Below are positions 7,404-60,842 of a DNA stretch of 64,000 nt, one piece after another (within the stretch, counting starts at the first letter, position 1; each line of letters opens with the position of its first letter). The stretch is from Iphione sp. A-MEVVRFRX5. Taxonomy: Eukaryota. The stretch lies in contig OZ320314.1 in NCBI GenBank assembly GCA_976226885.1, positions 67,208,001-67,272,000 on the forward strand, read 5' to 3'. A program made the translations under genes and the position numbers. The notes under the pieces were generated by a model. The model was not told the DNA's origin, did not search any database, and worked only from the letters and a program-made list of their open reading frames with translations.

Positions 7404-7793
7404 TGGCCACCAACAAGGACCAGGTGTGCAGCAAGTCGCAGCCAGTCGAAATTGAGTCGAGTCTGGGCTATCTGTCCAGTGTGGTAGCCGACACTACAGG
7501 ATTCGGCCTGGCAGACTGCCCTTGGCTTTTGAAGGTCAGCCCAGGGCGAAGCGTCAAACTAACACTCATTAACTTCGCCTTCTCTGGCCCAGGCCCAGGA
7601 GCGCTCGGTGGCACTGGAGTCTGCGAGACGTACATGATTATTAAGGAGACTCAACGGACCAAAAACATCACCGTGTGTAAAGGCGATAATCGTAAACAGG
7701 AGATATACGTATCTGAATCCAATTCCGTCCAGGTGCACATCTTGCCGACTAGAGGGACCCAGTATTCACGCAAGTTTGTGCTCAAGTATGAAG
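7404..7793 (+). CDS. Receptor gene exon: CUB(-like) domain
   Basis: Acceptor tatttttttgcag|, donor GAA G|gtgagt, phase 1-1. Translation contains GYLSS...DCPWLLKVSPGRSVKLTLINF...VC...SESNSVQVH...FVLKYE, which fits the CUB consensus (C-x-W-x-I/L, L-x-F, F-x-L-x-Y). Confidence 0.9.
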
Positions 7794-8999
7794 GTGAGTA
7801 TTCATGTTTCACCACTTTTGTGTACCAAATATGCCTCCGTTTTATTTTTCACATCAAAGATGTCTGTGGACATCTCACGCAACAATAGCTCATTTACTCA
7901 GCGAACGTGCATTTGTGTGTTTGGGGATGGGTGTTGGGGTGTGTGTGTATGTGTGTTAGTGTTTGTAGAAGAGGGGAGAGGGATGGCCGTGCTAGGCTGG
8001 CGATGGCACGACGCTATGCGCTTTCTTATTATAAGAGAGGACCTCCTAAGAAGATAATCGATTATACAGGCGGGCTTTTGTAAGGACAGCGCGGCCCGCC
8101 ATGTAAATCCTCGCCTCAATAGATCACCATGAGGCTGGCGGCCAGGTGTCATTTCGGGGATCCTGCAGCCTGCACTTGCCCCAAGCGAAGCCCCGTAGCC
8201 CCTCTGGCCTTGACGTTGCCGCCCGACCAACCATGAACCCGCATCCATTCACGCCTGATTAATGAACATCTCACTCCAGCGACGCCTTGACTAAGGCTTG
8301 CCTACCGCCAACAACACTCTATCTCCCATACCAGCTTCACAGGACCCACCGACGCCTTGCCACTAGCCTTGTCAGGACTGCCTCTTTTATGTTGTCGTTG
8401 GCTTCTTGTCACAGGTCCCACCCTTGTCTGGGGGTCTGCTGCAGTTTACAGTCTGGACGGAATGCATGTTTATGAGTGTAGCGGATTGTGAACATTCTCA
8501 ATAAGTTCACTGGGCCACATGATCTAGTCGTTACTGAAACTAGCGGCACCAATGATGGGACTTGTATATCATACGTTAGTTGTACAGGCCAAGACGTATA
8601 GAACAGAAACGTGACAGTTTAATATCACAGACGCCACCATGGTGCCCCTGGCTTGCGACTGTTGCCTTTTTCTAAAATTGCCCCCCCCCTTGAGCAGACT
8701 AGGCGACACTACCTATAAGGTGAGTTGGAGGTATAGCGTCATATTCCAGATTAGACCATTGTGTGGGGCACACCTGAGGATCAGAAAAGCTACGTACACA
8801 GAGACACTATCTTTCGTGTGCTCTAGAGATAAAGCATAGAGAATGAACACGGAGAAAAGCGTCCACTTGCATCTTGGAACTGTTTATAGTTCCACCCTCT
8901 TCTATTTGTAGTCATTTTGAATTTTCCCCATTCTTAACTGCCTAGAGCACAATCAGACCCCTTTAACCTCTGATACATATCAGGTCCCCCAGAACCATC

Positions 9000-22590: not shown

Positions 22591-22938
22591 GGCAAAAAAA
22601 AAATAGGTGTGTTTCTGGTAACCCAACCCTACCTAGTAAAACCTCACCCTACCTACCAAATTTTTGGCCCCAAAGAGTTTCCAAGGCTGAATTTCCTTAG
22701 GTATGTGTTTTCACGGTGCATATTTTTGGTAGATTCAGTGGAAAAACAACACAATCCATGGAAATTCAACAAAAACTGTAAAACTCATGCAAATTGGTCA
22801 AAATTCTTCATATTGTCTTCATTATTATTGAAAACAGAGGAAGAAAGTGGAAAAAAATTAAACAAAAAAAAGATACCCCACCTCCCTATCTAGCTTTTTG
22901 GCTGGTCGTTACCAGAAACACACCTATTTTTTTTGGCC
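22591..22938. mobile_element. 348-bp MITE, TTA target duplication, PIF/Harbinger-like (superfamily inferred)
   Basis: TTA|GGCAAAAAAAAAATAGGTGTGTTTCTGGTAAC ... GTTACCAGAAACACACCTATTTTTTTTGGCC|TTA; second copy inverted at 60491-60842. Confidence 0.85.
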
Positions 22939-25190: not shown

Positions 25191-27316
25191 TGGAACACCC
25201 CTGTGCATGACACTGGGGAAAACAAAAATGCAGCTCCCGGACTATAAACACACACACACAGCTCCTGCAAGCTCCCGGACACCATCGCCGGCATGGACAC
25301 TGGGCCTTAATAAGGCATATGACAACCCAGTGTTGAAACAAATAGTGCTTGTGTAAATCTTGATGGTTGCCACAGGATCATATGGTGTAATGCAACCGAT
25401 CACTCTAAAACCAGATATATGTTGAGGAGGGTGTTTGAATGTTGAAGCGTCGAATGCTTAACTCCTAAACTCCCTGTAGCTATGTGGCACAGTCTTTACG
25501 AGGGTGTTGCTCATGGACTAGATAGGTGTTGGGCAGGGGGACAAGCGTAACTAGGCTCGCAAAACTTCATCTGAGACGAGCATATCTGCTACGTGGCATT
25601 ACACTCCACCAAATGAAGCTGAACGCGGAAGGATTAGGCGGGCGCCGGGCGATGGCCACTTGGCTTGGGCAATCATTGAGACTCATTGAGGGGGCGGGCG
25701 CCGCGGTTGCCCGTCCGACTTATCTCTGTATCAGCGACCTGATGAAATCATCCCCTCTCTCGTTCATCTTGTAAAGAGCGTCCGACTTGCGTGCAGAGAA
25801 ATTAATGCGGTTTGATCAGCGCCACAACTTCTGCGCCACCTTCTGGCAGCCCGGACAAATAACCAACGCTCCTTGAGTCCAAGCGATGGCCCCGGTAATC
25901 CTCAGACTGAAAAAAGGTGCTTTGAAAATTATGATCACAATAACACACCCAGGAATGAGTTGGTAGTTTGTATCATTTGACTAGGCGCTGCTTCGCACTG
26001 AGGCTCCGGTCCATTGTAGTCCATGACGTAATTCTCATTATGATGTCCGAAGTGAACGCTGTGAAGATGCGCTTGAGTCTAAGTGGTGCCTAAGTGTTTT
26101 CACAATGCGCTTCCGTCGGCCACCAGTCGCATTCACTTGTCTAGCTGTCATTATTTTATTGACGGCGGAAGCCGGTTGCCGCTCGCTCTCCTGCAGGCAC
26201 CGCAGGGCGCACTGGCTTGATAAAGGACAGGTTCTCTGACACACAGCTTTTTACAAGGGTGCCTTTAATTCGCATTATGAATAAATATGCCAGCAGAGAG
26301 ATGCTTCCAATTGTGACCTGCTCTGTACGTATTTAATGCATGCATTTCAAATATAATTCACAGACAAGAATGAGGCAAAAATGTTTTAAAAAATGGAAGT
26401 CCAAGTGAATGGCTCATTATTTATTCCAACCACCTTTGCGATTTTCTACTCAGGGCGGTCCGCTTACGACTGAAGTCCTCACGCATTAAGCAGGGACGTA
26501 TCGCTGGCTAAGTTACAGATGCAAGCGCATGATGATGCCATGAATGAGGTAGTTTACAACAAAATGGCACCTGACGATGATATCAACTACTGAAGTGGTA
26601 TTACTTCTCGGTCGTTACCTTCGTCTGCCTCCGACATCCTTCTAGGCTTACTGTTCACCAATAGACAATAGAGATAGAATGAACTCCACAGATTACAAAC
26701 TCGTAACTATTTCAACTGTCTAGAAAATGGTACCGCACCGCTCCTGATTTCAGGCATACGTACTCCCTGACCAATATCATTGATACTCCCGGTACTTTGC
26801 ATGGATGTCTCTGACCGACAATACTTCGGCTTCGTAAGGCATCAGAGTATGATTTTATAGTTCGCCTTCTAGAGATTTCTAGGGAGCGAAAACTGGAAGG
26901 TCAACAAGACGGTATATTCTACGAATAATGAAAGCACCTCGACAATGGCGCTGGCGTCCAGCGTCACTTCCAATATAGTACAACGTTGATGACTGTATGA
27001 CCTTTGCCTTTCAGTGGGCCCTCTTTCTAGAGTCGCCCATCGCAAACGTCGTCTCCATTGTGAGAGTTGCTTCCCCCCAAAAGTGAAGTGACAATTTGCA
27101 AGTGACCACCGATTTCCCCTTTTATTACCCGTTCAATGTACCGTAGTCTCCCCTCCCCAAGTATTACTGATCCTTATAAGAAGCGTTTTTGTAGATTTAA
27201 AGTATTGTTTACATGAGTCTTATCGTCTGTCTTATATATCCCATACCTCCTCAACGTCTTGATTGCTTTGTCTAAACTTGCTGACGTCATTGCCTTCTGC
27301 TTGTTTTGTCTTGCAG

Positions 27317-27469
27317 CTTCGGGCTGTCCTGACCTTAAGCCCAAGGACCATTCGTGGGTGAAGAGAGTAGGCAACACGGCGGTCGTCAAGTGTAACCACA
27401 CGGGGGAGACTTACTTCCTCACGTGTGAAGGGGCTGACTGGGTCGGAGACATAGGAAACTGTTCCAAAG
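27317..27469 (+). CDS. Receptor gene exon: 4-Cys sushi/CCP-like module
   Basis: Acceptor ttgttttgtcttgcag|, donor AAA G|gtagcc, phase 1-1. Translation ASGCPDLKPKDHSWVKRVGNTAVVKCNHTGETYFLTCEGADWVGDIGNCSK (CP..C..C..W..C). Confidence 0.82.
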
Positions 27470-29100
27470 GTAGCCTTCTTCTGTCCTTCTCACTTGATAC
27501 GAATAATCCTTGCAGAGGAAGCCTTTACAATTTAGTATTGTCTAGCATTGTACAGCAGCTTTCATTATGTATAGCTACCAATACAACAAGTACATGTACT
27601 TCTGATATTCACTTCCATGCACATGTGCGTGGGAGGGGATTTTCCATCATTTCTTCAAATTCCACAAAGTACATTATACGGTTTGTATGTTCTCCTGCGA
27701 GTACCAAATGTGACTTCTGGGCTAGATTGTAAGCACGTAGGCTTTGAAAACGTCCACATGGCCTTGAAAATATTTTATACACGGAGACACCTAATATTTA
27801 GAAAATGTAACTCCCTATGAAATCATTTTCTCTATTAGTTGTTTCGTGCCCGATTGCTGAAGTAAATGGACAAAAGACTTACGTTGTCCATGCCCCACTA
27901 ATTACGGTCGGAGATGGTTGGTCTTATTGTATTTCTCTCTCCTTCTCTCTCCTCCTCTTTCTCTTCCTCTCCATTCGTTGCCTATCCTTGTCGTTTTTCT
28001 TTTCTCTATGACTCTTTCCTTTCCCCAGTCTCTAATCTAATCTAATCCAATGTGCAAAACTCGTAATGTTCGTTTGCTACGTCTTTTATCTTACATCCTC
28101 TACGCTCACCTTTATTTAATGTCTAATTATTGTTGCAATGATAACCCAAATGAGTACAATAAGAACAACTGGTTGGAACTCGATTTGTTCCATGATTGCC
28201 GAAGAACTTTAAAGCTATACTAAACCTCTGTAAGCCCCTAGGGATAGCCTTGCTTGTTTATCCAAAGATGCTCGAGAATGTAGACATTTAATGGTCTGTT
28301 GGAGTGTGGCGACAGTTCGAGCTAGCAACTCGCCCCCCAACCCCCGGGCTACCATCATCGGCCCATTTCAACCTCGACTGACGGTTCTCCTTTGAAATGG
28401 GAGGCAAACTTGCGCGTGTGGCCCTGTAGGTCCTCTGGGCGGAAATCATTCCGTCTGCTACACCTACCTGGTGTAATTAAGCCACTGCCTGCGGGCTATG
28501 CCGGCAGCCGGCGTCCAAGGCATCGGCCCGTGCCCTGCGTTTGAAGTTGATAATTAAATAGTGTACGCCGCTCCATAATTGATGTGGCCGAACGTGATCC
28601 CATGTCGGCCGCACCGACCCAATGCCCCGGCCTCCAGCTCATCTCTCATCCGCATTCCCGCCCCCTGCCCCTCAATCCTTTCGACTCCCCTTGGCTTCTC
28701 CCCCGCCCCCTTTTCCCCATGCTTCGTCTACCTTACGGCCGGACACCCGATCAACGGTACTTGACCGGCGAGGCAGCAGGGCCGTCCGTCAGCCACTCGT
28801 CAGCCCTCTGGCCTCCTCTCCCATTGGCCCAGGCTGTCTTCAATAACCTGTCCCTTACGTCCTTAAATCAACGGCAATCAAGTGTGCACCAAGACAGTAC
28901 AGGCCCAGTATGCAGTCTGACGGTAGTTGATACAGCACCTTAACTCCACCAAGCTCATCGGGTATAAAAATATTCAGACGGGTGTAAGACATCAACCTTG
29001 CCAGGTTTAGGTAAGATGTGGGTGTGACATACTAGAACAAGCACATTCTTGTAAACATGCATTCCCTTAGATCGATTATTCTCTGTTTCTTTCTTTACAG

Positions 29101-31431: not shown

Positions 31432-32057
31432 GTGAGAGCCACGTGACTCAAATTGGCGGGCGACTTGGCGCCCCGGGCGTAGGATGCGATAGTGGCACTG
31501 ATACTAACGCTTATCCGGGAAGAGGGGCTCACAAAAGTACACAGGTCGTGTAACGATCTAGTCCAACTTAACAAGAAAACTTGATCCATCTTAAAGAACT
31601 GGTTCTCTTGGTTATAATGATATTGTTGAGTGGGATGTTGCATATTTATTGGCAGTCAAGCCGATTTCAGTATCCAGGCTATTATGTTTGAATCAGCTTT
31701 CTAAGAACATAAATGGTTCATCTCAAATTTAAATTGCTCTTTTCTTGATCAGACTAGCCACATTCTTCGGGTTGCAACCATCTTTCACGAAGTTTCCAGT
31801 CTTACCCTTTTCAAACTAAGGGATCTTAAGTAAATGGTCCACGATAGTGCAGTATTAATGACGACATTTTGAACACTATAATGGCACAAAAAGTATAATA
31901 TGAATTGGATTCGAGAAGTGCATTCAGACGTTACCGCTTATCATCTGCGGAAATTGCCTCCGGAAAGCAGCTTTTCCAGAAAATGTGTTCTCTGTTTGAT
32001 TGTAGGAAATCTATCTAATTAGAGGTTGGTGATAAACCATGTATTTAAGTAATATAT

Positions 32058-32345
32058 TGTTGGCGGAGGATTGTTACTTGTTGTTGGGCGGAGGGATGTT
32101 ACGTGATGTCGGAGGGTTTGTTCAGGAAAGGGGCGGAGGGACGGGAAGCTAGTCTGGATTTGGCGGAGGGCGGAGGGGCGGAGGTACCGCGGAGGGATTG
32201 CTTTGTGTATATAAGTGCGAGCGGCGGAGGTCGGAGTTCAGTTGCTGTTGTTGGATTGTCGTTGCATGTGCTCTTCAGAAATAAATTACAAGTCATCTTT
32301 ACTCGCGGAGTGGAACTTCTTTATTCATAATGGCGGAAGCTAACA
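32058..32345 (+). repeat. 5' LTR
   Basis: tgttggc...gctaaca (imperfect terminal inverted repeat). Identical by eye to 40797-41084 (offset 8,739; the ORF-track peptides from both copies are identical). Confidence 0.97.
32208..32285 (+). promoter_or_regulatory. LTR core promoter (TATA + Inr) and poly(A) signal
   Basis: TATATAAG at 32208, Inr-like TCAGTT at 32238-32243 (~32 nt downstream), AATAAA at 32280-32285. Several GGCGGAGG GC-box-like repeats lie upstream in U3. Confidence 0.65.
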
Positions 32346-33586
32346 TTGGTGGCAGCGGTGGGATCCGGCGCCGAGGAAGGGACCAGGAAACTCAGGACCC
32401 TTCATCTGCTAAGCACTCGGCGTCGGCCCGACGACCCATGGAAGGAGACGAACCCGAGAGAAGAGTAACTCGTAGTGGAGGAGGAGGGCGCCGAGTCGAC
32501 GACGTGGAGGAACAACAAGGAGGAAGGCCCGAGCGGCCGGCTCGGACCCCATCCCGCTTGTGGGGCGGCGGGGAGGGGACGGAGGCAGACGGCCCTCAGG
32601 GCCCGGCTGCGGAGGCAGCGGAGGCAATTCCCCCGCGGGAGCCCCAGGATGCGGTGGCACCCGTGGGAAGGTCCACAGCGGTGGACGGAACTTTCTCTGA
32701 GTCCAACTCAGATCCCGAACTGGATATTACCAGCGGTGAGGAGTCGGCGGAGGAGGAGGAGGAAGTCGCCGTGGTGGAGGTAGGTGGGGCTCAGCGAGGC
32801 AGGGTCAAGCCAGAGTCTTTTGACGGGACCCAGGATTGGGAGGACTACCTCCACCACTTCAACTTAGTGGCGATGGCAAATAAGTGGGGAAGCCGCGAGA
32901 AAGCAGTGCAGCTGGGAGTTTGCCTCCGGGGTCCGGCGCGGGCAGCCATGAGAGCAGCTAGAATAGATGTCAACGCACGGGCGGCATTCCGCACCCTAGT
33001 CAAGACCTTGGCCGCCAGATTCCAGTCCCCTGAGCAGGTTGACCTCTACAAGCAGAGACTCAAGTCTTACAGGCAGAAGGCAGGGGAGGACCTCCTCCAA
33101 TTAGCCGACGAAGTAGAGCGTTTAGTCCGGAGGGCTTATCCCGGGATCAAGGGCCATTGGGCGGAGGAGTTATGCCGAGAAAGTTTCGTGCAGGCGGTGA
33201 GGGACGAGCGCATCAGGCAGTGGATCGTCCAGAAGAGGGTGGAAGGATTCCGGGCCGCAGTCTCCGAGGCAGCCTTTGCAGAAGCTTACTACAAAAACCG
33301 GGAAGAGAGGGAAGGTAGGAAGAGCACAGGCAGCAGTGTCCGAGCAGGGTGCAATGCGTTGGTAACAGCGGAGGTGAACAAAGTGGCACCAGGGCCTACC
33401 CCCACAGCAACGGAGGAGCTACTCCTAAAGTTGGCCGAACGCATCGAAAGTCTGGAGGGGAAGTGGAAGACTTCTGGAGGTCAAAGGAAGACAGGATGTT
33501 TCCGTTGCGGGAAGGAGGGGCACTTTAGACGGGAGTGTCCAGAGAAACCTAAGCCGGCGGAAAACGACAAGCCGTCCTCCCAGTAG
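32330..33586 (+). CDS. gag: Retrotransposon Gag (418 aa)
   Basis: Gag-like motif PESFDGTQDWEDYLHHFNLVAMANKW...K...L...LRGPA; CCHC knuckle CFRCGKEGHFRREC at 33497-33538. Confidence 0.93.
   Translation: MAEANIGGSGGIRRRGRDQETQDPSSAKHSASARRPMEGDEPERRVTRSGGGGRRVDDVEEQQGGRPERPARTPSRLWGGGEGTEADGPQGPAAEAAEAIPPREPQDAVAPVGRSTAVDGTFSESNSDPELDITSGEESAEEEEEVAVVEVGGAQRGRVKPESFDGTQDWEDYLHHFNLVAMANKWGSREKAVQLGVCLRGPARAAMRAARIDVNARAAFRTLVKTLAARFQSPEQVDLYKQRLKSYRQKAGEDLLQLADEVERLVRRAYPGIKGHWAEELCRESFVQAVRDERIRQWIVQKRVEGFRAAVSEAAFAEAYYKNREEREGRKSTGSSVRAGCNALVTAEVNKVAPGPTPTATEELLLKLAERIESLEGKWKTSGGQRKTGCFRCGKEGHFRRECPEKPKPAENDKPSSQ
32347..32364 (+). promoter_or_regulatory. Primer-binding site, tRNA-Leu (AAG/TAG type)
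   Basis: TGGTGGCAGCGGTGGGAT, 1 nt after the LTR end, is complementary to the 3' end (...AUCCCACCGCUGCCA-CCA) of eukaryotic tRNA-Leu, as I recall that sequence. Confidence 0.85.
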
Positions 33587-36500
33587 GGGGAGAGGGAGAG
33601 ACGGCGGAGGAGCTCATCCCCAGGGTTGCGGTGGCAGAGACGAGGGGCGGAGGAGAAGATTATAGAACGGAAGACGAGATAAGCGGGGAGATGGACCGAA
33701 GATCAGGAACTCTCACGCTGACTGGAACGGTGAAGGGGCGGCCCCTGACGTGGTTGGTGGACACGGGGGCCTCCGCGACTATTATTGCCCCTCAGGTCGC
33801 GGAGGAGGTCGGGCTGCAAGTTCGACCGAAGCCAGGACAGAGGATCGTGGGCGCCGACGGCCGCCCCCTTCAATGCAAAGGTGAGACCGAGCTGGAGGTC
33901 CAGTTCCAAACGACGAAGTGGTTGATCAAGGCGTTAGTCGCGGAGGTGGAGTACGCCGCCATCCTGGGGATGGACGTCCTCCGCCAGCGGGGAGCGGTGG
34001 TGGACACGGCAAGGGGGGTCCTCCGCCTCCCTGCCGAGGATCCCCCTTCTGCCGTCGTACGGGTGGCCAGGGACGTGCAGGTAGCCGCCAGCGGGAAGAG
34101 TGTCATCCCAGTAATAGTGGAGGGAGCGGAGGCAGACCAATGGATGTTGGAACCTGAGAGGCGGTTCGAAGTGGAAAACGGCCTGCGGGTACCCCGATCG
34201 TTGCTGCCGGGAGGAGTCGAGGAGACGGCCGTCCTGTGCGTGAACACGTCAGCGGAGGGACGATGGTTACGAAGAGGAGCTACCGTGGGACGGGCGGAGG
34301 CTGCGGAGTCACCGGAGGCGACGAAGGGGACCAGGTCGGAGGACCCCAAGGCGGGAGGGGAAGTCGTCCAAGAATTAATGAAGACGGTGTCAGATGAATT
34401 TGCGGAGGACGAGAGGGAGGCCCTTCGCGGGGTGCTGTGGGACCACAGGAGGGTGTTCCAAACTAAAGAAGGAGGAATGGGACGGACGGACCTGATCCAG
34501 CACGAGATTCACACGGGGAATGCGGAGCCCGTCCGACAGCGATTCCGGCGGCTCCCTCCTCATAAGCGCAGGATTGTCGAAGAGGAAGTGCAGAAGATGG
34601 TAGCGCAAGGGGTGCTAGAACCTTCGCGGAGTCCGTGGGCCTCCCCCATTGTTCTGGTCAAGAAAAAGTCGGGAGAGTGGCGGTTCTGTATCGATTTTAG
34701 ACGGCTGAACGAGAAGACACGGAAGGACGCATACCCAATTCCCCGGGTCGACGACACCCTGGATGCCTTGGCTGGGGGGAAATATTTCTCCGTTATAGAT
34801 CTGGCCTCAGGATATTGGCAGGTGGAAGTCAAGGAAGAAGACCGGGAGAAGACCGCGGTGTGCACCCCGGGGGGCCTTTACCAATTTAAAGTCATGCCCT
34901 TCGGGTTATGCAATGCACCCTCGACGTTTGAGAGACTGATGGAGGTCGTGCTGTGTGGACTGATAGGTGAGGGGTGCCTCGTGTACCTCGACGACGTGAT
35001 CATCATGGGCTCGACCGTTCGACAGATGTGCAGCCGACTGGGGGAGGTGCTCGGTAGACTGGAGGAGGCGGGAATGCGAGTGAAACCGAAGAAGTGCCAG
35101 CTGCTGCGGAGGGAGGTGACCTATCTCGGACATGTGGTCTCCGCGGAGGGGGTTCGGCCAGACCCGGAGAAGGTGCAGGTAGTCGCGGAGTGGCCAGAGC
35201 CTGCCTCGGTGAAGGAAGTGCGAAGTTTCCTGGGACTCGCGTCCTACTACAGGTCCTTCATTCGTAACTTCGCGCGGAGGGCGGAGGCACTGCATCGGCT
35301 GCTGGAAAAAGGAAAGAAGTTCGAGTGGGGGGAAGCTCAACAGGCCTCGTTTGCTGATCTGCGGCAGTGTCTCGTTACGGCCCCCATCCTGGGCTTCCCG
35401 ACGTCCGAGGGTCAGCTTATTCTGGACACCGATGCCTCCGCGGATGGCCTGGGAGCGGTACTGTCCCAGCGGCAGGCAGAAGGGGAGCGAGTGCTGGCCT
35501 ACGCGAGTCGTACCCTCACCCGACCCGAAAAACGCTACTGTGTCACCAGGAAGGAGCTTCTGGCGGTGATCTTCGCCTTAAGGAAGTTTAAGACGTACGT
35601 GTCAGGAAGGAAGGTGGTTATCCGCACGGACCACGGCAGCCTCCGCTGGCTGATGCACTTCCGCGAGCCCGAGGGGCAGATGGCCCGCTGGTTAGAAGAA
35701 ATCTACTGTCGGGATGTGGACATCATCCATCGAGCAGGACGGGTGCATAACAATGCAGATGCTCTGTCGCGGCGACCGTGTCGACAATGTGGCCGTCCCG
35801 AAGGAGTGTCGGAGGAGGAGGACGATTGCGCGGAGGGGGTCTTCGCACTGCAAGTTCTACCGGTAGTGCAGCCCTCGGAGATAGCAGCAATAGTCGGCAA
35901 GGACGAGCGTCTGAGGGAAGTGTTACACCGCCTGGAGGAGAAGAACGGACCGCCGGAATGGGGGCCTGAAACCACGTGGGAGGAGAGGAGGCTTCTCATG
36001 GAATGGGCTAGGCTGTCAGCCGATCGCGGGCAGATAACCAGACGCTGGGCTGCGGAGGACGGACGGACTTGGCCCCAGACGTTCGTCCCGGAAGAGCTTC
36101 GGAAGACCTGTTGGGAGGAGGTGCATTCGGGGGCCTTCGGAGGACACCTCGGGCCAGTTAAGACAGCCGGCTTGCTACGCACGAAGTTTTTCTGGCCGGG
36201 ACTGAGTCGTGACGTGCAACTGTGGGGAGGAAGCTGCCCGGTGTGTCTAGAAAGAAGAAGCCCTCCGCGGCGGAAGCGCACACGACTACAACAACGACAG
36301 CCTGGAGGGCCGTGGGAATTAATAGCGGTGGACGTCTTAGGCCCCTTCCCCGAAACAGAGCGCCAGGCCAAGTACGTGTTGGTGGCATGCGACCATTTTA
36401 CTAAATGGGCGGAGGCGTTCCCCTTGCGCACACTGGCTGCGGAGGAAACTGCCTCAGTGCTGGTACGGGAGCTCATCTGCCGCTTTGGCCCTCCGCGGGT

Positions 36501-39500
36501 TATTCACAGTGATCAGGGAAGGAACTTCGAGGCGCGACTGATGGCGGAGGTATTACGGCTGTGCGGAGTAAAGAAAACAAGGACCACCCCCTATCACCCT
36601 CAGGCCGATGGACAGGTGGAAAGGTTCAACCGGACATTGCAGCACATGTTGGCTACCACGGTGCAGGAGCACCAGGGGGATTGGGACTTGCGACTCCCGT
36701 ACGTGACGGCAGCATACCGAGCTACACCCCATCGGACCACCGGCTACTCGCCGAACTTCCTCGCCCTCCATCGGGAAACCACGCTACCACTACAGCTGGC
36801 CTACGGAGGACCAGAGTCAGCGGAGGAGGGAACACCCTCCGAGTTTGCTGGGGAGCTTCGAGATCGGGTCCGCGCAGCGCATCGGCTGGCCTTCCAGCGA
36901 ATGAAGGAGGGGATCGTGCGGCAGAAGGACTGGTACAACCAAAAAGTGCGGCCGATCGCGTACAGTGTGGGGGAGGAGGTGTACGTGTTCCACCCCATCA
37001 AGAAACAAGGGCTATCGCCGAAGTTACAACGATTTTGGGGCGGCCCATGGATTGTCCAGGAAGCCTTGTCAGAAGCAGTCTATCGGGTGAAGAAAGGGCG
37101 GAGGGAGCGAGTCGTCCATGCTGACCTACTGAAGCCAGGGCCGAGGACCTCCGCGGAGAGGGCTGCGGGGAATTGCCCAGCGGAGGCGACCGTTACAGTA
37201 GCGAGCGCGCGGCGGGAAGTCTTAACCAATCGCTGTGAGGCGGAGGGAAGCCAGCGGTACCTCCGCGGGCGCACCGCTATAAAACCGCGCGAGAAGCCAT
37301 CGGTCGAGTCACTACGAATCCCACAACCAAGAAAGATGCCACGACGGAGGTCCAGCGATGACAAGCTTAAGTGCCATAAGTGCTCTTATGTGTGCGACAG
37401 AAAGGATAACCTGAAGCGCCACATGAAACTTCATGCTCAGTATGGGTACGCGTGGGGTTGCCCATCGCAGCGGTGCCCCGAGAAGGTGTTCCAACGGAAG
37501 GATGATCTACGGCGGCACTTGGAAACTAAACAACATGACGCGGAGGGGGGCGTGAAGCTGATGAGGAAGTCACGTGAACGGTATTACCAGTTCTTCAAGG
37601 TGGAGGGGTCCTCCGTGCTGAGAGGGAGGCCCGCCGACCCGTCCGTGGTGGAAGGAAGCCCGCGGCCTGCCCCCAAGAAGAAGCAGGCTCAGCAGGAGAG
37701 GGCGGAGGCGCCCTCCACGGAAAGCGAGGCTGAGGAGGGAGAGGAGTCGGCGGAGGTTGCAACCACGTCGGAGGAAGCGGAGGACGATCGAGACGACTGG
37801 GAGCCCCAGCCCTCCACCTCGACTGCGAGAAGCCCTCCACGGCCCCCGCCCAAGAAGAAAGAAAGTAAGCCTAAGAAGAGTGCGCGGCAGCAGCCCCCGG
37901 CCGCGACCGGCCACGACGACCCAACTCCGACCGATGAAACAGAGAAGTCCCCGCATTCGCTGTGCCGTGAGCTGAGGGATACGATTACGGGATTGGAAAC
38001 CAGGCATCCAGCCACGCCGGCCAGCTCCCCGGCCACGGTGGCCAGGTTGGTGGAGACAGCCGACAAGTTAGAACGGGCAATGCTCGGGTCCCCAGCGCCC
38101 GGGGTCGTTCTGCGGAGCAGCCCCCTCGCGAAACGGCGACTAGCGGAGGATCCGAAGAAGTCGGAGGGGGCCAAGCGAGGTCGGGGTAAGGGCCCCACCC
38201 TTTCTCCGTTGGTGGGTCGTTTAGGTGGGCAGCTCCCGAAGGTACCATCGCCGCTTCTGATGGAGGAGAGGACTCCGCCAGCCCTACCAGAGGAAGCGGC
38301 CTCCCCGAGACTCGTTACCCCGGAGGTCACCAAAGCGAAGACGGGGCGCATTTCTGCGCTATCGACACCCAGTATGCCGCCGACCCCGGAGAACCTTTCC
38401 GAGCTAGTCAAGCGCATGCAGGAAGAAGGGGGCCCCCGAGCCCCCCCCGCACGAGTGGACGAAGTGGCGGCGATGTTCAAGGCTATGTTCGGTGACTCCA
38501 TCGTCGTATCAGTCCCGGCCGGCGACGGGGCAGGGAGCACGGAGAAGATGAAGGGGAGTTCCTCGGAAGAAGAGCTTGCGGCGAAGCTTCCGGCCTCCGG
38601 GGATGACGAGGAGGCCGCCCCCGGCGACCAAGAACTTGCGGGACCCCCCGAGCTGCAGTACGTTGAAGTGGGTGGAATATTAGAAGTACATGAAGCCGTC
38701 ACGCCGGAGGCCCCTCCTCGAGTCCCGACTGAGCCCCCCCGGGGGGCTAACGACGCGCCCAGGGCGGGCCCGGACCCCAAGAAGATGGCTGCGGAGGTGC
38801 TCCAGTGGGAAGCACAACAGGCGATAGCGACGGTCCGGGCCATGGAACTCCGACAGGAAGAACAAGGAGAGGCAGCGGAGGGCAGACCACTAACCCGGCC
38901 TGGGCTCCCGGGAACGCCCTCGACCGTGGCGCGAAGGGCCACCACTCCTCCGGGGATCCCCTCGGGCACGGGGGAGAGCTCGCTGCCAACCCAGGGAGGG
39001 CCTCCGCTGACAGGCCCACCACGGCAAGGGGGGCCCCCGCCGCCGGGTACCTCGAGAGCCAAGCAACCGATGACCACCGAGGGACCGCAGGAAGAAGAGG
39101 GAACACCGCGGGACCAGCAGCAGATCCCCTCCCCGGCCCTACCACAGGGAAGGGAAGAGCATGACGGATCAGCCAGGCCGGCGCCCGCGGACCTTGAAGA
39201 AGCCAAGAAGGGGACGGAGGCCAGTACTCTTGGGCAGGAGCTCCCTCCGCGACCGGAGGGAGACGAACACGGGGGGGGTACCCGGCCGGTCTCTCCCCAC
39301 GACGGGCAGCGCGTAGACGGAAGCGAACCAGACCCTCTCCCCGGCGATCAGCGGGAAGACGGCTTGCAGGGCGACGACCAGGAGGCGGAGACCCCTCCGC
39401 ACCAACAGAGCGACGAAACCGGGGAAGGGACCAGGCCGGCCCCCCCTCAAGTCGAGCCACACGAGACCAGCGCGGGGGACAGTACCCGGGAACCCGACCC

Positions 39501-40785
39501 CTCCACGCCACCGCGAGTGGGCGAGCCTGAGGGGGAGAGCGAGCCGACTCGGCCTTCCGTCGAGGGGCGCGGAGGCAGCGCAGAGCCCCTTCCACGACGG
39601 AAGGGAGACGAACACGGGGAGGGGGCCAGGCCGGTCCCTCCCCACGTCGAGCGGCGCGGGACGGGCGCGGAGGGCGATATCCGCGAGGTCGAGCCTTCTC
39701 CGCGGCCGAGGACGGAAGAACCGGAGGAGGGGACCAGGCCGGTTCCCCCCCGCGGTGGGCCGCACGAAGGGGTTTCGTCGGGCACGACCCCGGAAAAAGG
39801 CCCCCCTCCACGACGGAGGGGGGATGAATATGGGGAGGAGATCAGGCCGGTCCCTCCCCACATCGAGCGGCGCTGGACTGACGCAGAGGGCGACACCGAG
39901 GAAGCCGGGCCTTCTCCAGTCGGGCGAGGGGAGGGGACCAGGCCGGTCCTTCCCCGTGGCGCGCCAGTCGAAGGAACCTCGGCGGGCACGGCCCTGGAGA
40001 TAGAGCCCCCTCCACGACCGGGGGGGGACGAACACGGGGAGGGAACCAGGCCGGTCCCTCCCCACACCGAGCGGCGTGGGATTGAGGCGGAGGGCGACAA
40101 CCGCGGGGTCAGGCCCTCCCCACGACGGAGGAAGGGCGGGCGGGGGGAGGAGACCAGGCCGGTCCCTCCCCGTGGCGGGCCGCACGAAGGGGCCTCACCG
40201 AGCACCACCCCGGGGAAAGAGCCCCCTCCACGACGGGGGGAGGACGAATACGGGGGGGGAGCCAGGCCGGTCCCTCCCCACAACGAGCGGCGACTGCCGA
40301 CAGCGGACTCCGACCCTCACTTGGCGGAGGGCGGAGGGGCGACAAACCAGACTGCCACGCCGCCTTCCTCGGGTCTGCACGGCCCGGAGAGGCGGCAACG
40401 GCGGAGGACGATATCACGCGAGGCGGCACGACGGCCGAGCGACGATCGGCAGGAGGCAGAGATATGGGCCCGTTGGGCAGCGGCACGACAGATCACGTGT
40501 GATGCCGACCCTCCGCAGGGGTGGTCGATAAGAACGAGCAAGGGCCGTAGCCGGTTGGCCCGCAGTGCTGACGGACTAGTCATAGGAGTACGACATGAAC
40601 TCTCCCTCGCCCGAGAGGCGGAGGCGGCTGACGCACAGACACTGTCCCGGTGGTTTGGTCGATCCACAGAGATCCCTGAGGAACTGAGCCTAGAAGAGTT
40701 TATTTTTGAACTTAGCGTAGATAAGGACTGTGCCGTTGTTGAAGCAGACGAAGTGTTTAGCGTTACTCGGGACGAGTTTGTCTAA
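33553..40785 (+). CDS. pol: Retrotransposon Pol (PR-RT-RNase H-IN) with ~1,200-aa in-frame C-terminal extension; frame is -1 relative to gag
   Basis: LVDTGAS (~33754), YLDD (34984-34995), DTDAS and RTDH (RNase H), H-x6-H...C-x2-C (36124-36246), DVLGP / SDQG / VERFNRTL (DDE). Frame is open from 33553 to TAA at 40783-40785. Confidence 0.95.
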   Translation, partial: AGGKRQAVLPVGGEGETAEELIPRVAVAETRGGGEDYRTEDEISGEMDRRSGTLTLTGTVKGRPLTWLVDTGASATIIAPQVAEEVGLQVRPKPGQRIVGADGRPLQCKGETELEVQFQTTKWLIKALVAEVEYAAILGMDVLRQRGAVVDTARGVLRLPAEDPPSAVVRVARDVQVAASGKSVIPVIVEGAEADQWMLEPERRFEVENGLRVPRSLLPGGVEETAVLCVNTSAEGRWLRRGATVGRAEAAESPEATKGTRSEDPKAGGEVVQELMKTVSDEFAEDEREALRGVLWDHRRVFQTKEGGMGRTDLIQHEIHTGNAEPVRQRFRRLPPHKRRIVEEEVQKMVAQGVLEPSRSPWASPIVLVKKKSGEWRFCIDFRRLNEKTRKDAYPIPRVDDTLDALAGGKYFSVIDLASGYWQVEVKEEDREKTAVCTPGGLYQFKVMPFGLCNAPSTFERLMEVVLCGLIGEGCLVYLDDVIIMGSTVRQMCSRLGEVLGRLEEAGMRVKPKKCQLLRREVTYLGHVVSAEGVRPDPEKVQVVAEWPEPASVKEVRSFLGLASYYRSFIRNFARRAEALHRLLEKGKKFEWGEAQQASFADLRQCLVTAPILGFPTSEGQLILDTDASADGLGAVLSQRQAEGERVLAYASRTLTRPEKRYCVTRKELLAVIFALRKFKTYVSGRKVVIRTDHGSLRWLMHFREPEGQMARWLEEIYCRDVDIIHRAGRVHNNADALSRRPCRQCGRPEGVSEEEDDCAEGVFALQVLPVVQPSEIAAIVGKDERLREVLHRLEEKNGPPEWGPETTWEERRLLMEWARLSADRGQITRRWAAEDGRTWPQTFVPEELRKTCWEEVHSGAFGGHLGPVKTAGLLRTKFFWPGLSRDVQLWGGSCPVCLERRSPPRRKRTRLQQRQPGGPWELIAVDVLGPFPETERQAKYVLVACDHFTKWAEAFPLRTLAAEETASVLVRELICRFGPPRVIHSDQGRNFEARLMAEVLRLCGVKKTRTTPYHPQADGQVERFNRTLQHMLATTVQEHQGDWDLRLPYVTAAYRATPHRTTGYSPNFLALHRETTLPLQLAYGGPESAEEGTPSEFAGELRDRVRAAHRLAFQRMKEGIVRQKDWYNQKVRPIAYSVGEEVYVFHPIKKQGLSPKLQRFWGGPWIVQEALSEAVYRVKKGRRERVVHADLLKPGPRTSAERAAGNCPAEATVTVASARREVLTNRCEAEGSQRYLRGRTAIKPREKPSVESLRIPQPRKMPRRRSSDDKLKCHKCSYVCDRKDNLKRHMKLHAQYGYAWGCPSQRCPEKVFQRKDDLRRHLETKQHDAEGGVKLMRKSRERYYQFFKVEGSSVLRGRPADPSVVEGSPRPAPKKKQAQQERAEAPSTESEAEEGEESAEVATTSEEAEDDRDDWEPQPSTSTARSPPRPPPKKKESKPKKSARQQPPAATGHDDPTPTDETEKSPHSLCRELRDTITGLETRHPATPASSPATVARLVETADKLERAMLGSPAPGVVLRSSPLAKRRLAEDPKKSEGAKRGRGKGPTLSPLVGRLGGQLPKVPSPLLMEERTPPALPEEAASPRLVTPEVTKAKTGRISALSTPSMPPTPENLSELVKRMQEEGGPRAPPARVDEVAAMFKAMFGDSIVVSVPAGDGAGSTEKMKGSSSEEELAAKLPASGDDEEAAPGDQELAGPPELQYVEVGGILEVHEAVTPEAPPRVPTEPPRGANDAPRAGPDPKKMAAEVLQWEAQQAIATVRAMELRQEEQGEAAEGRPLTRPGLPGTPSTVARRATTPPGIPSGTGESSLPTQGGPPLTGPPRQGGPPPPGTSRAKQPMTTEGPQEEEGTPRDQQQIPSPALPQGREEHDGSARPAPADLEEAKKGTEASTLGQELPPRPEGDEHGGGTRPVSPHDGQRVDGSEPDPLPGDQREDGLQGDDQEAETPPHQQSDETGEGTRPAPPQVEPHETSAGDSTREPDPSTPPRVGEPEGESEPTRPSVEGRGGSAEPLPRRKGDEHGEGARPVPPHVERRGTGAEGDIREVEPSPRPRTEEPEEGTRPVPPRGGPHEGVSSGTTPEKGPPPRRRGDEYGEEIRPVPPHIERRWTDAEGDTEEAGPSPVGRGEGTRPVLPRGAPVEGTSAGTALEIEPPPRPGGDEHGEGTRPVPPHTERRGIEAEGDNRGVRPSPRRRKGGRGEETRPVPPRGGPHEGASPSTTPGKEPPPRRGEDEYGGGARPVPPHNERRLPTADSDPHLAEGGGATNQTATPPSSGLHGPERRQRRRTISREAARRPSDDRQEAEIWARWAAARQITCDADPPQGWSIRTSKGRSRLARSADGLVIGVRHELSLAREAEAADAQTLSRWFGRSTEIPEELSLEEFIFELSVDKDCAVVEADEVFSVTRDEFV
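33559..33604 (+). promoter_or_regulatory. Putative -1 programmed ribosomal frameshift signal
   Basis: G_GAA_AAC in the gag frame at 33559-33565, 6-nt spacer, then stem ccgtcctccc (33572-33581) / gggagagacgg (33594-33604). It lies in the 34-nt gag/pol overlap. Confidence 0.65.
39589..40290 (+). repeat. Coding tandem repeat in the pol extension (units of 216/204/216 bp plus a partial unit)
   Basis: Anchors c(c/t)t-cca-cga at 39589, 39805, 40009 and 40225. Each unit reads PPRRxGDEHGEGxRPVPPHxERR...EGTRPVPPRGGPxEG. A diverged copy starts at 39244. Confidence 0.9.
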
Positions 40786-40796
40786 GAGGGGGGCAG
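40784..40796 (+). promoter_or_regulatory. Polypurine tract
   Basis: aagaggggggcag abuts the TG of the 3' LTR and overlaps the pol stop codon. Confidence 0.9.
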
Positions 40797-41084
40797 TGTT
40801 GGCGGAGGATTGTTACTTGTTGTTGGGCGGAGGGATGTTACGTGATGTCGGAGGGTTTGTTCAGGAAAGGGGCGGAGGGACGGGAAGCTAGTCTGGATTT
40901 GGCGGAGGGCGGAGGGGCGGAGGTACCGCGGAGGGATTGCTTTGTGTATATAAGTGCGAGCGGCGGAGGTCGGAGTTCAGTTGCTGTTGTTGGATTGTCG
41001 TTGCATGTGCTCTTCAGAAATAAATTACAAGTCATCTTTACTCGCGGAGTGGAACTTCTTTATTCATAATGGCGGAAGCTAACA
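40797..41084 (+). repeat. 3' LTR
   Basis: Direct repeat of 32058-32345, immediately preceded by the PPT. Confidence 0.97.
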
Positions 41085-42670
41085 TTATGTTCAATGCGGG
41101 TTGGCAAAGATATCATCACAGGGGAGGGCTTTCCGCTTTTTCGTGTATTTCTTCCGTGCGTGTGGAAAAAACGCCGGCCCCGCCGTTGGTTGTGGGAGGG
41201 CTGTGACCGCGTGTAGTATAGGAATGCGGTATTTGACCCAGGCTTCGAAGCGGCGGTGACAACAGCCCCGTTCCCCACTGTTGGCGGAGGAAACTGCTAA
41301 AAATGCGAGATAAGCCGTGCTTAAGGTGGAATGGATCCGTATGAAACCGACTAATTGGTCTCTACGTGGGCCAGCCATCAAGGGCACCTCCTCATACGGT
41401 AATATCTTTGGCCTGCAGACTGCCACTGATATCGAAGTCAATCTCCACTTTAAAATTAACGCCCGGCTCGGGCGACGAGCAGTGCGCCATGATTAGGGCG
41501 TACGTTTGCCTGCTATTTCTCGGTTAGTTACCTATCGGTCCGGACCAACTGGCGAGCTGCACGGCCGTTTTTCATTAACCACTACTTTAGGCTGCTATTA
41601 GGACGATGGCAGGCACGCAGTGACGGCTGCAGTATAATAATGGGCGTGTGGATGATGCCGAGGTGCCTCTCGACTCACCAGTCTTGTCGACGATGTCGTG
41701 CAGCTGACTAGTTTTCGATTTGTTAAGTGAAAGCCCCGACCAGGTGATCGGTTTAGCTGTAGTAACTCATCTTAATTGAAATGATTAATTGATGCCACAG
41801 TTTGGGCAAGTTGGAGTGGGGGTGGACGTGCCTAATAATGTGGCTGACTGGCGAAATCTTGGTGACTAATGTTGTGGTGAATAAGATTGGGTGTATATGT
41901 ATGTGGCTAAAATGCCTCTCCTACCCCGCAGTAGTTTTGGAGCAAGTTGGAAGGAGAGGCGGACTCACACTTTATATGAACCATTACCTAAATGCTCGTA
42001 GGGCAGGTTCTCACTGCTGGATTGAGAGTGGCCCGCGTTTTGAGAGTACATGCATATCGGCTGCCGTTTACACTAGTCGTTACCAGGCATGTGGGCGGCC
42101 GCGGGCAGTGTGTGGCTAGAGACTGGCCCTCCGGACATGAGCCTACCCTGATCTATATCGCACCAGATAAAAGAGCATTGTGCCCGTCTACTTTACTACA
42201 TTAGCCCGGAATGCAGCCGAGACCGCAGCCGCCGGTCCTTGCCGTAACCCGCCATTAGCCGAATGCTTTCTGCCGGCAAAACATTGACTTTCCCAGCGGC
42301 GGATTGGTGCCTTGTGCCCCCTGCCTCCCGTGAGATCGTTCAGATATTGGCCCCTACAAAGACCTGTCGAAGCTGGTTGCTGCCATCACCTCAACACCGG
42401 AGGCGGGCGGCGGGAGCCCGAACATGGAGTTAGACAGGCACGCACAGCAGTAACTCTCCAAAACGGCATCAGTCAGATTCCATTGCTTGTCGCACGTCCG
42501 TTGTCCGGTGTTGATCTACGGTGTTTGTTTTACTTGGGGGACTCGCAGTACACAAGGGTGCTGTAATCAAACACGCATTAAACGTCTTTTGATAGATGAA
42601 ACGGTCTACGTCGTGATAATTTCCCCGACCCAATGCCTACTCTTATACCTCCTTTGTTGCTCTTTTGCAG

Positions 42671-43418
42671 GCGAAAGGAGCGAAATACCCGCAGCGCTAC
42701 CACCGATCCCCTGTTGGACGAGACGACTCATGAGAACGACGAGAACCAGGCACAGTGCAACTGTCCCGCTAAGATATATTACTCATCCCGCCTGGAGCTG
42801 CAGCGGCAACTGCAGCGTCACGGACTAGAAAAGTCGGTTGGCGGCGAGGGCCCCCCAGGGGTGCTGCGGGCCGACGCCAACACCCTTCCCATGCCCGACA
42901 TGTGTATCATAGAGACTGTGCCCATCAACGAGATCCTCGCCAATGGCACCACCGCCTCCACGGACGGCGGCGATAGACGCGCCTCGCAGCCGCTCGACGA
43001 TGACCACCGCGAGATGCAGACCTCCTTCATCACTTTTAAACCTAACAGTAGCTCTGCTGCTGTGGCGAGCGGGGCCCCGGCCCCCAGCGTGCAGGCTGGA
43101 GCCCCCTCCAAGGACGCGTGTAAAACGTGCTGCCCCCGCGCAGCCTCCAAGGGCCTGAGGTCGCCTGGCGACACGCCGCTGTACGACCGGCGGCGTAGAG
43201 AGATCCAGACTAGTGCAGCCCCCTATGGCACGCTAGGTGAACCTGCGGGGCGTGCCAAGACCATCTATGACACGACACAAAGCAAGAACTGTGCTGAGTG
43301 TGCACGGGACCGTGAGAGCGTATACAGCACCCGCCAGCGGGAACTGCTGAACGCCACGAACCTCTCGAACAGTGTGCCCTCAGCCGACATCAGCGCCACC
43401 ACCCAGCCTGTGCGGTAA
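42671..43418 (+). CDS. Receptor gene terminal exon: ~250-aa cytoplasmic tail
   Basis: Acceptor ttgctcttttgcag| in phase 2 joins AG+G (Arg) into RKERNT..., open to TAA at 43416-43418. The six exons total 1,724 nt and are frame-consistent. Confidence 0.8.
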
Positions 43419-52845: not shown

Positions 52846-52896
52846 TGAATGAATGACACAGACAACCAAATTGGGGGGTTTACAACTCAATTTGGG
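52842..52896 (-). repeat. Ngaro split direct repeat B1
   Basis: 55 bp (atattgaatgaatgacacagac...caatttggg), identical to 52639-52693. Confidence 0.92.
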
Positions 52897-53860
52897 CCAA
52901 CCCCCAAAGACAAAGAAAAATATTTATCAAGAGGTAACTTCTGTGTCACAGAAGGTTTAATGTAATTGAAAACCACATTGCTTTTCCAACCACCACGTTC
53001 TTTAATGGCTTGTACTGGTAGACCAACTCTTGCCATGTGGGTTGCCCCACCCCTATGTAATGAGTGAGAAGTAATCCTACCCTCTAACCCTCCTTCCTTC
53101 CTAAGTTTCTTTAAATAGGCTTGGAATACCTCATACTCTAAATAACATAGCTTACTACCAACTTTATAAGGAAAAATTGGATAATCACCCTCAACTCTGA
53201 TAAAAGAAAAAATCAGACGTAACCAGTGTACAGAACATAAAATCTTGTTAGAGCATGGAGAAACCACAATTTCTCTCAGCTGTTCCCCAAACTGATCTGT
53301 CTTAGAGAATCTAACATGAACTACAATATAATCAGCAACAATTTAAATATCACTCCTACGCAGACCCCTATTCCCAGTGAACTGCTTTTTCCTCAAGAGA
53401 CATCTAAAACCCTAAACAATAGAAACCCAAAACACCATATCAAGTGCTCCTTTGAACACCATATGATGATACATCTCCAACAAATCCTCCACAGTGACCC
53501 CTTTTGCGACCAGGCTAGGCAACCCATACAACCTTTTACAACCAGCAATCATCCACTTCAGGCAGTAATCTGAGCTATCAGATTACTATCAGAGCTATTG
53601 ATAAACCTCTGCATTTATGTTAAAAAACAACTCCACTGATATAGTTGGCAGTACTGTTAGGATTCAAAATAAAAGAGAGATACACGCAATACAAATGCAG
53701 CTGAGACTGACTACATGGATAAGGAGAACAAAGATAACGCTTACAGAAATGCAAATCCCTCTCTCCTGTCTTCTTCTCACTGATAGGGTGTTCTTGGAAA
53801 AGGCCGACCCCTTAAGGACCTTCATGCACCCCAACAGTGACTCAATTCCTCCTGAAAAAT
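52887..53860 (-). pseudogene. Tyrosine recombinase of the Ngaro element (disrupted)
   Basis: ITSHSLHRGGATHMARVG...IKERGGWKSNVVFNYI. The N-terminal SAFSKNT motif lies in another frame, and the catalytic Arg codon reads CAT (His). Confidence 0.85.
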
Positions 53861-60490: not shown

Positions 60491-60842
60491 GCCCCCCCCC
60501 CCCCAAAAAAAATAGGTGTGTTTCTGGTAATGACAGGCACAACCTAGGGAAGGGGGGTATCTTCTTTTTTTGATGATTTTTCCCACTTTCCTCCTCTGGT
60601 TTTCAAAAATAATAAAGATTATATGAAGAATTTTGACCAATTTGCATGAGTTTTACAGTTCTTTGCTGAAATTCCATGGATTTATTGTCTTTCTAATGAT
60701 TTTACCAAAAACATGTGCTGTGAAAATATGTATCTAAGAAAATTTAATGTTGGAAACTCTTTGGGGCCAAAAACATTTTAGGTAGGGTGAGGTTATACTA
60801 GGTAGGGGTGGGTGACCAGAAACACGCCTATTTCTTTTGGCC
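60491..60842. mobile_element. Second copy of the same MITE, opposite orientation
   Basis: Reverse complement aligns along the full length of 22591-22938. TTA on both flanks; left TIR altered by a poly-C expansion. Confidence 0.85.

Follow-up and report, generated by a model that had tools for sequence, protein, structure and literature searches.

Retrotransposons with long terminal repeats (LTRs) are generally taken to rely on host transcription factors, and the locus described here raises the question of why such an element should carry two zinc fingers of its own behind its integrase, and which DNA these fingers would read. The element, an intact member of the Ty3/Gypsy group at positions 32058–41084, lies in a 64-kb window of the genome of Iphione sp. 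A-MEVVRFRX5 (assembly GCA_976226885.1, contig OZ320314.1, positions 67,208,001 to 67,272,000 of the forward strand; the window is this whole stretch, and coordinates are counted from its first letter). An original prediction for this DNA had proposed that the element encodes a factor which binds its own LTR or GC boxes, or which tethers integration. In the present analysis, the finger pair is predicted to read 5'-GCGGAG(G/T), the word repeated in the LTR, and sequence-specific binding of the element by its own finger protein is considered very probable.

Two zinc fingers and their predicted word

Both finger peptides are present where the original prediction had placed them, at 37372–37536 in the pol frame:

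37372..37434, plus strand: C2H2 finger 1, Cys1274 to His1294; helix R(-1) D(+2) N(+3) R(+6); predicted to read GAG and then G or T
37459..37536, plus strand: finger 2, non-canonical, Cys1303 to His1328; helix R(-1) D(+2) D(+3) R(+6); predicted to read GCG

The near-identity that had been claimed for the two recognition helices holds for R(-1), D(+2) and R(+6) but not for position +3, at which they differ (Asn versus Asp), and it is this difference that makes the predicted target specific. In the C2H2 code, as set out in the available text of PMC12264921, the 3' base of a triplet is read by helix position -1, the middle one by +3 and the 5' one by +6, with G recognized by Arg, A by Asn and unmodified C by Asp, and position +2 contacts the following base on the other strand; the same text describes the code as incomplete and error-prone. 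The specificity prediction gives GAG for finger 1 (R, N, R) and GCG for finger 2 (R, D, R), and engineered modules described in the available parts of PMC5260015 and PMC7317221 include RSDNLVR, RRDNLNR and RQDNLGR for GAG, RSDDLVR for GCG and RKDNLKN for AAG. As binding is antiparallel, the two triplets combine to 5'-GCG GAG, and pairing of Asp(+2) with a C or A on the other strand would make the next base G or T. The prediction was not blind, as the LTR repeat was already known, and the base mapping was taken from the published code.

Finger 1 fits the C2H2 pattern, has sequence matches to Ikaros and CTCF fingers in the PDB and is the only finger that Pfam detects (zf-H2C2_5, E 3.5e-7, 30.1 bits against a cut-off of 27; zf-C2H2, E 1.8e-5, in a piece of 320 amino acids (aa)); finger 2 has no Pfam match. 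The TGEKP-type linker is absent, an unrelated 8-residue linker being found instead, and helix spacing across the family is 32–37 aa. In all four aligned family members, finger 2 keeps both Cys, the first His and, in the helix, R(-1) and D(+3). AlphaFold models both fingers as short strands and a helix, with predicted local distance difference test (pLDDT) values of 71–76 for finger 1 and 56–65 for finger 2, and the nearest, non-significant fold matches are the C2H2–DNA complexes of WT1, ZBTB10 and BCL11A. The R(-1)–D(+2) pair, R(+6) and the G-rich, CpG-containing triplets are shared with Egr1/Zif268, WT1 and Sp/KLF as far as the available sources describe them; unlike in those proteins, there are only two fingers, finger 2 has extra residues, and the pair is encoded by a mobile element.

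The LTR is indeed packed with repeats: within its 288 nt, nine GCGGAG(G/T) words and seven exact copies of GGCGGAGG can be counted, every copy lying on the plus strand. The sites in the 5' LTR are the following:

32063, 32088, 32133, 32163, 32170, 32178, 32189, 32224 and 32305, plus strand: GCGGAG(G/T)
32109 and 32231, plus strand: TCGGAG(G/T)

The nine copies of GCGGAG compare with a mean of 0.29 and a maximum of 4 in 5000 dinucleotide shuffles, and none of the other 15 GNG-GNG hexamers exceeds two copies in the LTR. Across the 11 CGGAG sites of the LTR, the conserved footprint coincides with the predicted seven bases (the first being G in nine and T in two); the sole other bias is a G one base 5' of the footprint in nine of the 11, and nothing is conserved beyond. 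The upstream regions of other Gypsy loci (six regions from five loci) contained no significant repeated hexamer, a control that is weak because the LTR bounds were guessed there from text resembling a primer-binding site. The observed/expected ratio of CpG, which is 1.26 in the LTR, about 0.9 in pol and its tail and 0.75 in gag and the flanks, is suggestive at most.

It might be argued that the word serves a host factor of the Sp/KLF/Egr/WT1 type, or an RNA structure, and that the match to the fingers is a coincidence or the relic of a captured host gene. Helices of the R-x-x-D...R type and G-rich words are common, and four of the nine LTR sites have NGG upstream and so are possible Sp-type sites. 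However, the LTR contains no GCGGGG, which is the core of the Sp1 box, and leaves the triplet upstream of its sites free. In the body of the element, NGG precedes only 8 of 64 sites, and pol shows no enrichment of GGGCGG (8 versus 6.2 expected). The suggestion that the repeats are GC boxes in the Sp1 sense is thus not supported. Moreover, both middle bases of the word agree with N(+3) and D(+3), and the LTR copies are restricted to the plus strand. A host factor or RNA structure as the reason for the word is considered very unlikely.

The word in the coding sequence and in relatives

The pol frame was compared with 1000 synonymous-codon shuffles, in which protein and codon usage were kept, and 2080 hexamers were ranked. 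In the pol core, GCGGAG took first place among the 2080 (37 copies on both strands versus 10.2, z 8.7), the largest null z for any hexamer being 4.9; in eight other Gypsy-type pol frames with no detected fingers (nine were tried, one being too short), hexamers reached a z of at most 4.6. The excess is found on each strand (27 versus 8.8 and 10 versus 1.4) and is confined to copies ending in G or T (34 versus 8.0, as against 3 versus 2.4 for those ending in A or C), while in the tail the hexamer ranks third (z 4.0). In the protein, Ala-Glu pairs are 2.2-fold over expectation, the maximum being 2.06 among the 120 relatives listed, and 21 of the 24 pairs are encoded as GCG-GAG. Base pairing in the RNA between plus- and minus-strand copies would be conceivable, as a structural role of the word would have it.

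Homologues of Pol numbered 367, of which 120 long ones were listed, and fingers were sought by a strict pattern. Two of the 120 carry fingers after the integrase: in P0024 the module is the same, whereas P0007 has another pair. Further members of the module family are P0138, P0293 and P0297. The first of these was the one new member among 108 integrase-bearing matches of 150 listed in a search of representatives, and P0297 was the one more obtained in a profile search, whose 25 matches otherwise comprised P0138 itself and mostly host multi-finger proteins. Helices identical to those of P0293 are carried by P0297 and by P0290, a cluster mate of P0293. A quick tree of reverse transcriptase and integrase (47 rows) pairs P0001 with P0024 as sisters (support 98; both proteins are of atypical composition). 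In an integrase tree of 30 rows, a single branch separates the four proteins with the module from all others, within a group that also contains P0007 and P0008 (support 88). The trees were built from database homologues only, with no reference elements of named Gypsy clades. The helix positions that do not vary within the family are R(-1) and D(+3) of finger 2 and R(+6) of finger 1, from which a shared CG-G core is predicted; the others vary. For the P0024 and P0138 families, the predicted words are GCG-GTA and GCG-GNG.

A second pair of fingers and LTR was assembled from two sources. None of 58 metagenome loci held the finger module; L032, the sole clade member among them, includes a 5' LTR (324–687) on a contig that ends before the fingers, and its Pol is 99.77% identical over 1310 aa to P0293, the helices of which are READMTS and CKKSLDR. 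The top hexamer of the L032 LTR, determined before the P0293 fingers were found, is CGGTGC, present in six copies with T, A or G in front (shuffle mean 0.26). Finger 2 of P0293 is without Arg(+6), which would leave the 5' base free, and with Ser(+3) in finger 1 a pyrimidine is expected; a QKSSLIA module is listed for ATA in the available parts of PMC5260015 and PMC7317221. The helices of P0293 thereby predict N-C-G G-Y-N, and the L032 word, NCG GTG C, fits. GCGGAGK is absent from the L032 LTR and occurs nine times in that of the window, whereas CGGTGC occurs six times in the former and never in the latter, and the counts of CGGYNC are 11 and 1. In L032 pol, the top 4-mers are GGTG (z 4.2) and CGGT (z 3.7), ranks 1 and 2 of 136, despite CG depletion. 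Dense, family-specific motif arrays thus appear to change together with the protein in both of the two elements having both parts. Such a joint change of helices and word in L032/P0293 speaks against a host factor, although about 5% of hexamers would, by arithmetic, fit the degenerate L032 prediction. On the strength of the code match, the covariation in a relative and the enrichment of the word in coding sequence, the claim that the encoded factor binds its own LTR is well supported computationally.

Several further observations concern the relatives. The sites in L032 324–687 lie in both orientations, a near-palindromic pair included, and those of the window LTR face one way; with a purine tract in front of its LTR, the L032 contig may be a collapsed or tandem assembly. 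The P0007 cluster, in a neighbouring Gypsy lineage, has a C2HC plus C2H2 pair after the integrase with a Met in front, and was kept apart from the module on account of its different finger pair and unlike helices; P0008, the sister of P0007, has by eye a similar C-terminal stretch and no finger. Extra domains (PF00628, PF00385, PF01753, PF02338, PF01885, PF00633, PF12836 and PF27108) were seen in related Pol proteins, and these, PF27108 excepted, are taken to be PHD, chromo, MYND, OTU, KptA and helix-hairpin-helix. L011, L029, L034, L036, L042 and L060 are Gypsy elements in which, by eye, a chromodomain-like stretch follows a proline-rich linker. Scans of viral contigs gave one distant element and nothing else useful, and the three matches in a scan of prokaryote genomes were not similar to Pol.

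Architecture, candidate internal promoter and surroundings

The features of the element, all on the plus strand, are as follows:

32058..32345: 5' LTR, TG...CA, 288 nt, identical to the 3' LTR
32208, 32238 and 32280: TATA, initiator-like TCAGTT and AATAAA, all in the 5' LTR
32330..33586: gag, with the start ATG within the 5' LTR, a capsid-like region and a CCHC knuckle
32347..32364: primer-binding-site-like stretch, one base beyond the LTR, presumably tRNA-Leu-like
33553..40785: pol, one uninterrupted frame of 2410 aa, shifted by -1 against gag, with protease, reverse transcriptase, RNase H, integrase, two C2H2 fingers and a long tail
33721..33987: aspartic protease, aa 57–145 (Pfam)
34657..35703: reverse transcriptase and RNase H, aa 369–717 (Pfam)
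36085..37137: integrase (H2C2 domain, core, C-terminal domain), aa 845–1195 (Pfam)
37098..37335: candidate internal promoter in the pol frame, from sequence statistics, with GCGGAG at 37098, 37149 (minus), 37153, 37180, 37240 and 37261 (minus), CCAAT at 37226 and TATAAAA at 37278
37336..37338: Met at which a separate finger protein of 1149 aa could start, 12 residues N-terminal to finger 1
37537..40400: low-complexity tail of about 950 aa, rich in Pro, Glu, Gly and Arg, with acidic stretches and, at 39156–40292, repeats of about 36 aa
40450..40785: C-terminal portion of about 110 aa with more hydrophobic residues
40786..40796: polypurine tract, immediately 3' of the pol stop codon
40797..41084: 3' LTR, identical to the 5' LTR

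The domain order identified by Pfam, gag followed by protease, reverse transcriptase, RNase H and integrase, is that of Ty3/Gypsy. Neither an env domain nor any env or tas family match was found in the two frames scanned with Pfam, and no chromo match followed the integrase at E-values up to 1. With its two identical LTRs, the intact element is very young. The putative target-site duplication is imperfect in spite of that identity, ATAT (32054–32057) and TTAT (41085–41088) agreeing at three of four bases. The start codon of gag falls within the 5' LTR (32330–32345), so that gag reads through the LTR end and the primer-binding site. About 1080 aa, mostly low-complexity, lie 3' of the fingers in the pol frame; their final 110 aa or so yielded no Pfam family, no atlas match and no BLAST likeness to P0024, and the predicted model of this portion is not usable (pLDDT 36.6).

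TATAWAW occurs three times in the 9-kb element, once in each LTR and once at 37278, 58 nt 5' of the Met at 37336. Synonymous shuffles yield 0.024 such TATA boxes per whole frame, and P is 0.005 for the promoter interval. A Met stands 7–22 residues before the first finger in all five finger-bearing proteins. This arrangement suggests that a separate finger protein may be made from an internal promoter, but a form fused to Pol is equally encoded.

In a different reading, the fingers would act within integrase or Pol: they would either grip the element's own complementary DNA (cDNA) along its length, be it for assembly of the pre-integration complex, its protection or its import into the nucleus, or tether integration to genomic GCGGAG. 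The fingers are indeed in frame with Pol, about 78 aa past the integrase C-terminal domain (PF22938, aa 1164–1195), with no intervening stop and no separate stop-delimited open reading frame, and relatives have PHD, chromo, MYND or OTU domains at the same place. GCGGAG sites span the whole element, as coating of cDNA would require, but their density peaks in the LTR promoter and ahead of the internal TATA box, and the lone TATA box and Met just 5' of the fingers also speak for a separate protein. Regarding tethering, as put forward by the original prediction, little support was obtained: the 55 kb of flanks hold six GCGGAGK sites, of which one lies about 200 nt from the right junction, a single insertion is visible, and tethering to the element's own word would favour self-insertion. 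The site by the junction belongs to a 13-nt match to the LTR start (41279–41291, 195 nt from the junction), which contains GCGGAGG. As one of four such 13-mers in the flanks it is at chance level, and the idea of a solo-LTR relic was rejected for this reason. A role of the fingers within Pol is therefore regarded as unlikely.

Outside the element, exon-like pieces of a host gene were observed on the plus strand of the window at 1462–1983, 7382–7885, 27217–27729 and 42600–43415, with matches to SUEL lectin (E 1.7e-10) and, weakly, CUB (E 0.011), the other two being without a Pfam match; the element may sit in an intron of this gene in sense orientation. The SUEL-lectin and CUB exons indicate an animal host, perhaps an annelid-like one. 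The minus-strand segment 52639–56891, in which a tyrosine-recombinase fragment (52890–53342, PF00589, E 1.4e-8) is flanked by repeated segments, is probably a decayed DIRS-type retrotransposon. Two inverted-repeat pairs (22596–22886 and 60548–60838), 37 kb apart and 76–82% complementary, are likely copies of a dispersed repeat.

A putative self-regulator and its parallels

On balance, the element seems to encode a self-regulator, probably an activator or anti-silencer expressed from the internal promoter in the manner of foamy virus Tas or of VANC. A short transcript from this promoter would give a finger-plus-tail protein starting at Met 37336, which would bind the clustered GCGGAG(G/T) sites of its own element, and the acidic, proline-rich tail would recruit host machinery. 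The protein might then raise its own transcription and that of the LTR in a positive feedback, as does Tas, and/or keep the element free of silencing, as do VANC and TnpA. Methylation by the host may turn this loop off, since the bases that the invariant R(-1) and D(+3) of finger 2 would contact form a CpG and Asp favours cytosine without modification.

The same protein could instead limit copy number or keep latency as a negative autoregulator covering promoter and body. Sites 32224 and 32231, between TATA and the initiator-like element, could block initiation, and the numerous sites in transcribed sequence could act as roadblocks. On the other hand, eight of the 11 LTR sites lie 5' of the TATA box, which is an activator-type layout, the acidic and proline-rich tail has no Pfam repressor domain, and the identical LTRs point to recent activity, so that negative autoregulation appears quite unlikely.

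A number of observations weigh against a finger-based activator or anti-silencer. Finger 2 (C-x4-C-x13-H-x5-H) and the linker are non-canonical, the mean pLDDT of the finger model is only 56, and its fold search gave no match at E 0.001. The promoter interval was picked after the TATA box had been seen, and in one element only; GCGGAG is not enriched in gag (5 versus 3.2). Support for the four-member module group is only 73 in the 30-row tree. LTR and fingers are both known for two elements only, the second pair being a JGI contig joined to an ENA protein by identity; the hexamer CGGTGC is not enriched in L032 pol (7 versus 4.6, z 1.0), in which only 4- and 5-mers are, modestly (z 3.4–4.2), and Cys(-1) of P0293 finger 1 leaves the G of GTG unexplained. 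According to the available text of PMC12264921, a large basic side chain at +2 is able to fix a G on the other strand, and the +2 Lys of P0293 would explain the invariant C, an explanation that is post hoc. The Ala-Val dipeptide predicted for P0024 is not enriched (rank 201 of 400, against a background of 19 proteins). Finally, no evidence from this sequence separates activation from repression.

The closest functional parallel to the proposed self-regulator is foamy virus Tas/Bel1, a DNA-binding protein that has an internal promoter in the 3' half of the virus and binds both LTR and internal promoter (PMC4929722, in its available part). The present element likewise has a candidate TATA box inside pol, copies of the word both in the LTR and ahead of that box, and a predicted binding domain with a possible activation region behind it. 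Unlike in Tas, the function is predicted, the sites run through coding sequence, and the C2H2 pair is in frame with Pol in a Ty3/Gypsy element without a detected env domain and with Gypsy-type Pol relatives, that is, not in a spumaretrovirus. Arabidopsis VANC (VANDAL) and TnpA (Spm) provide a second parallel, since in the available texts (PMC5735166; bioRxiv 10.64898/2026.08.24.746577) each transposon protein is matched by a short motif that is densely arrayed in one orientation within the protein's own element, and motif and protein diverge together between families. Those systems belong to plant DNA transposons of the Mutator and CACTA types, and the VANC21 motifs are, in the same texts, mainly non-coding, whereas the present case concerns an animal LTR retrotransposon, with a C2H2 target predictable from sequence and sites within codons. 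The element would on the whole seem to work like Tas and VANC/TnpA while being a member of neither group. Finally, in chromoviruses and other Gypsy/Ginger integrases, as described in the available parts of PMC2836005 and PMC13524379, cargo such as chromo, PHD, OTU or Ulp1 follows the integrase C-terminal domain, as the fingers do here in frame; such cargo reads chromatin marks or cleaves ubiquitin/SUMO, whereas the fingers are predicted to read a DNA word enriched in their own element.

In the literature, no Gypsy-encoded C2H2 reader of its own LTR was found, although an earlier annotation is possible, as Repbase, most subscription journals and supplements lay outside the search. The term 'zinc' is absent from an annelid LTR survey (PMC8556966), as are 'zinc finger' and 'C2H2' from PMC13524379 and PMC6338049 (supplements again lying outside the search), and the available text of PMC2836005 mentions C2H2 only for the integrase N-terminus.

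A more far-reaching proposal is put forward tentatively. A clade of animal Ty3/Gypsy elements could carry a private two-finger transcription factor within the Pol frame, with an internal promoter and with helices re-tuned in each family, whose LTR and coding sequence are rewritten with the matching CpG word. Such a methylation-sensitive circuit of self-recognition and anti-silencing would mirror the host zinc-finger arrays that silence transposons, and its coevolution would be readable from sequence.

Complex retroviruses (Tas) and plant DNA transposons (VANC, TnpA) are known to make sequence-specific regulators of their own, and a C2H2 version in animal Ty3/Gypsy elements would, if true, bring a new class of element into this group. 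Given a readable C2H2 code, the coevolution of protein and target may be testable over many families from genomes alone. The coding sequence itself appears to be shaped by the binding word, and it would be unusual for codons to be selected for the sake of DNA binding; the finding also bears on the traffic of zinc fingers between hosts and transposons.

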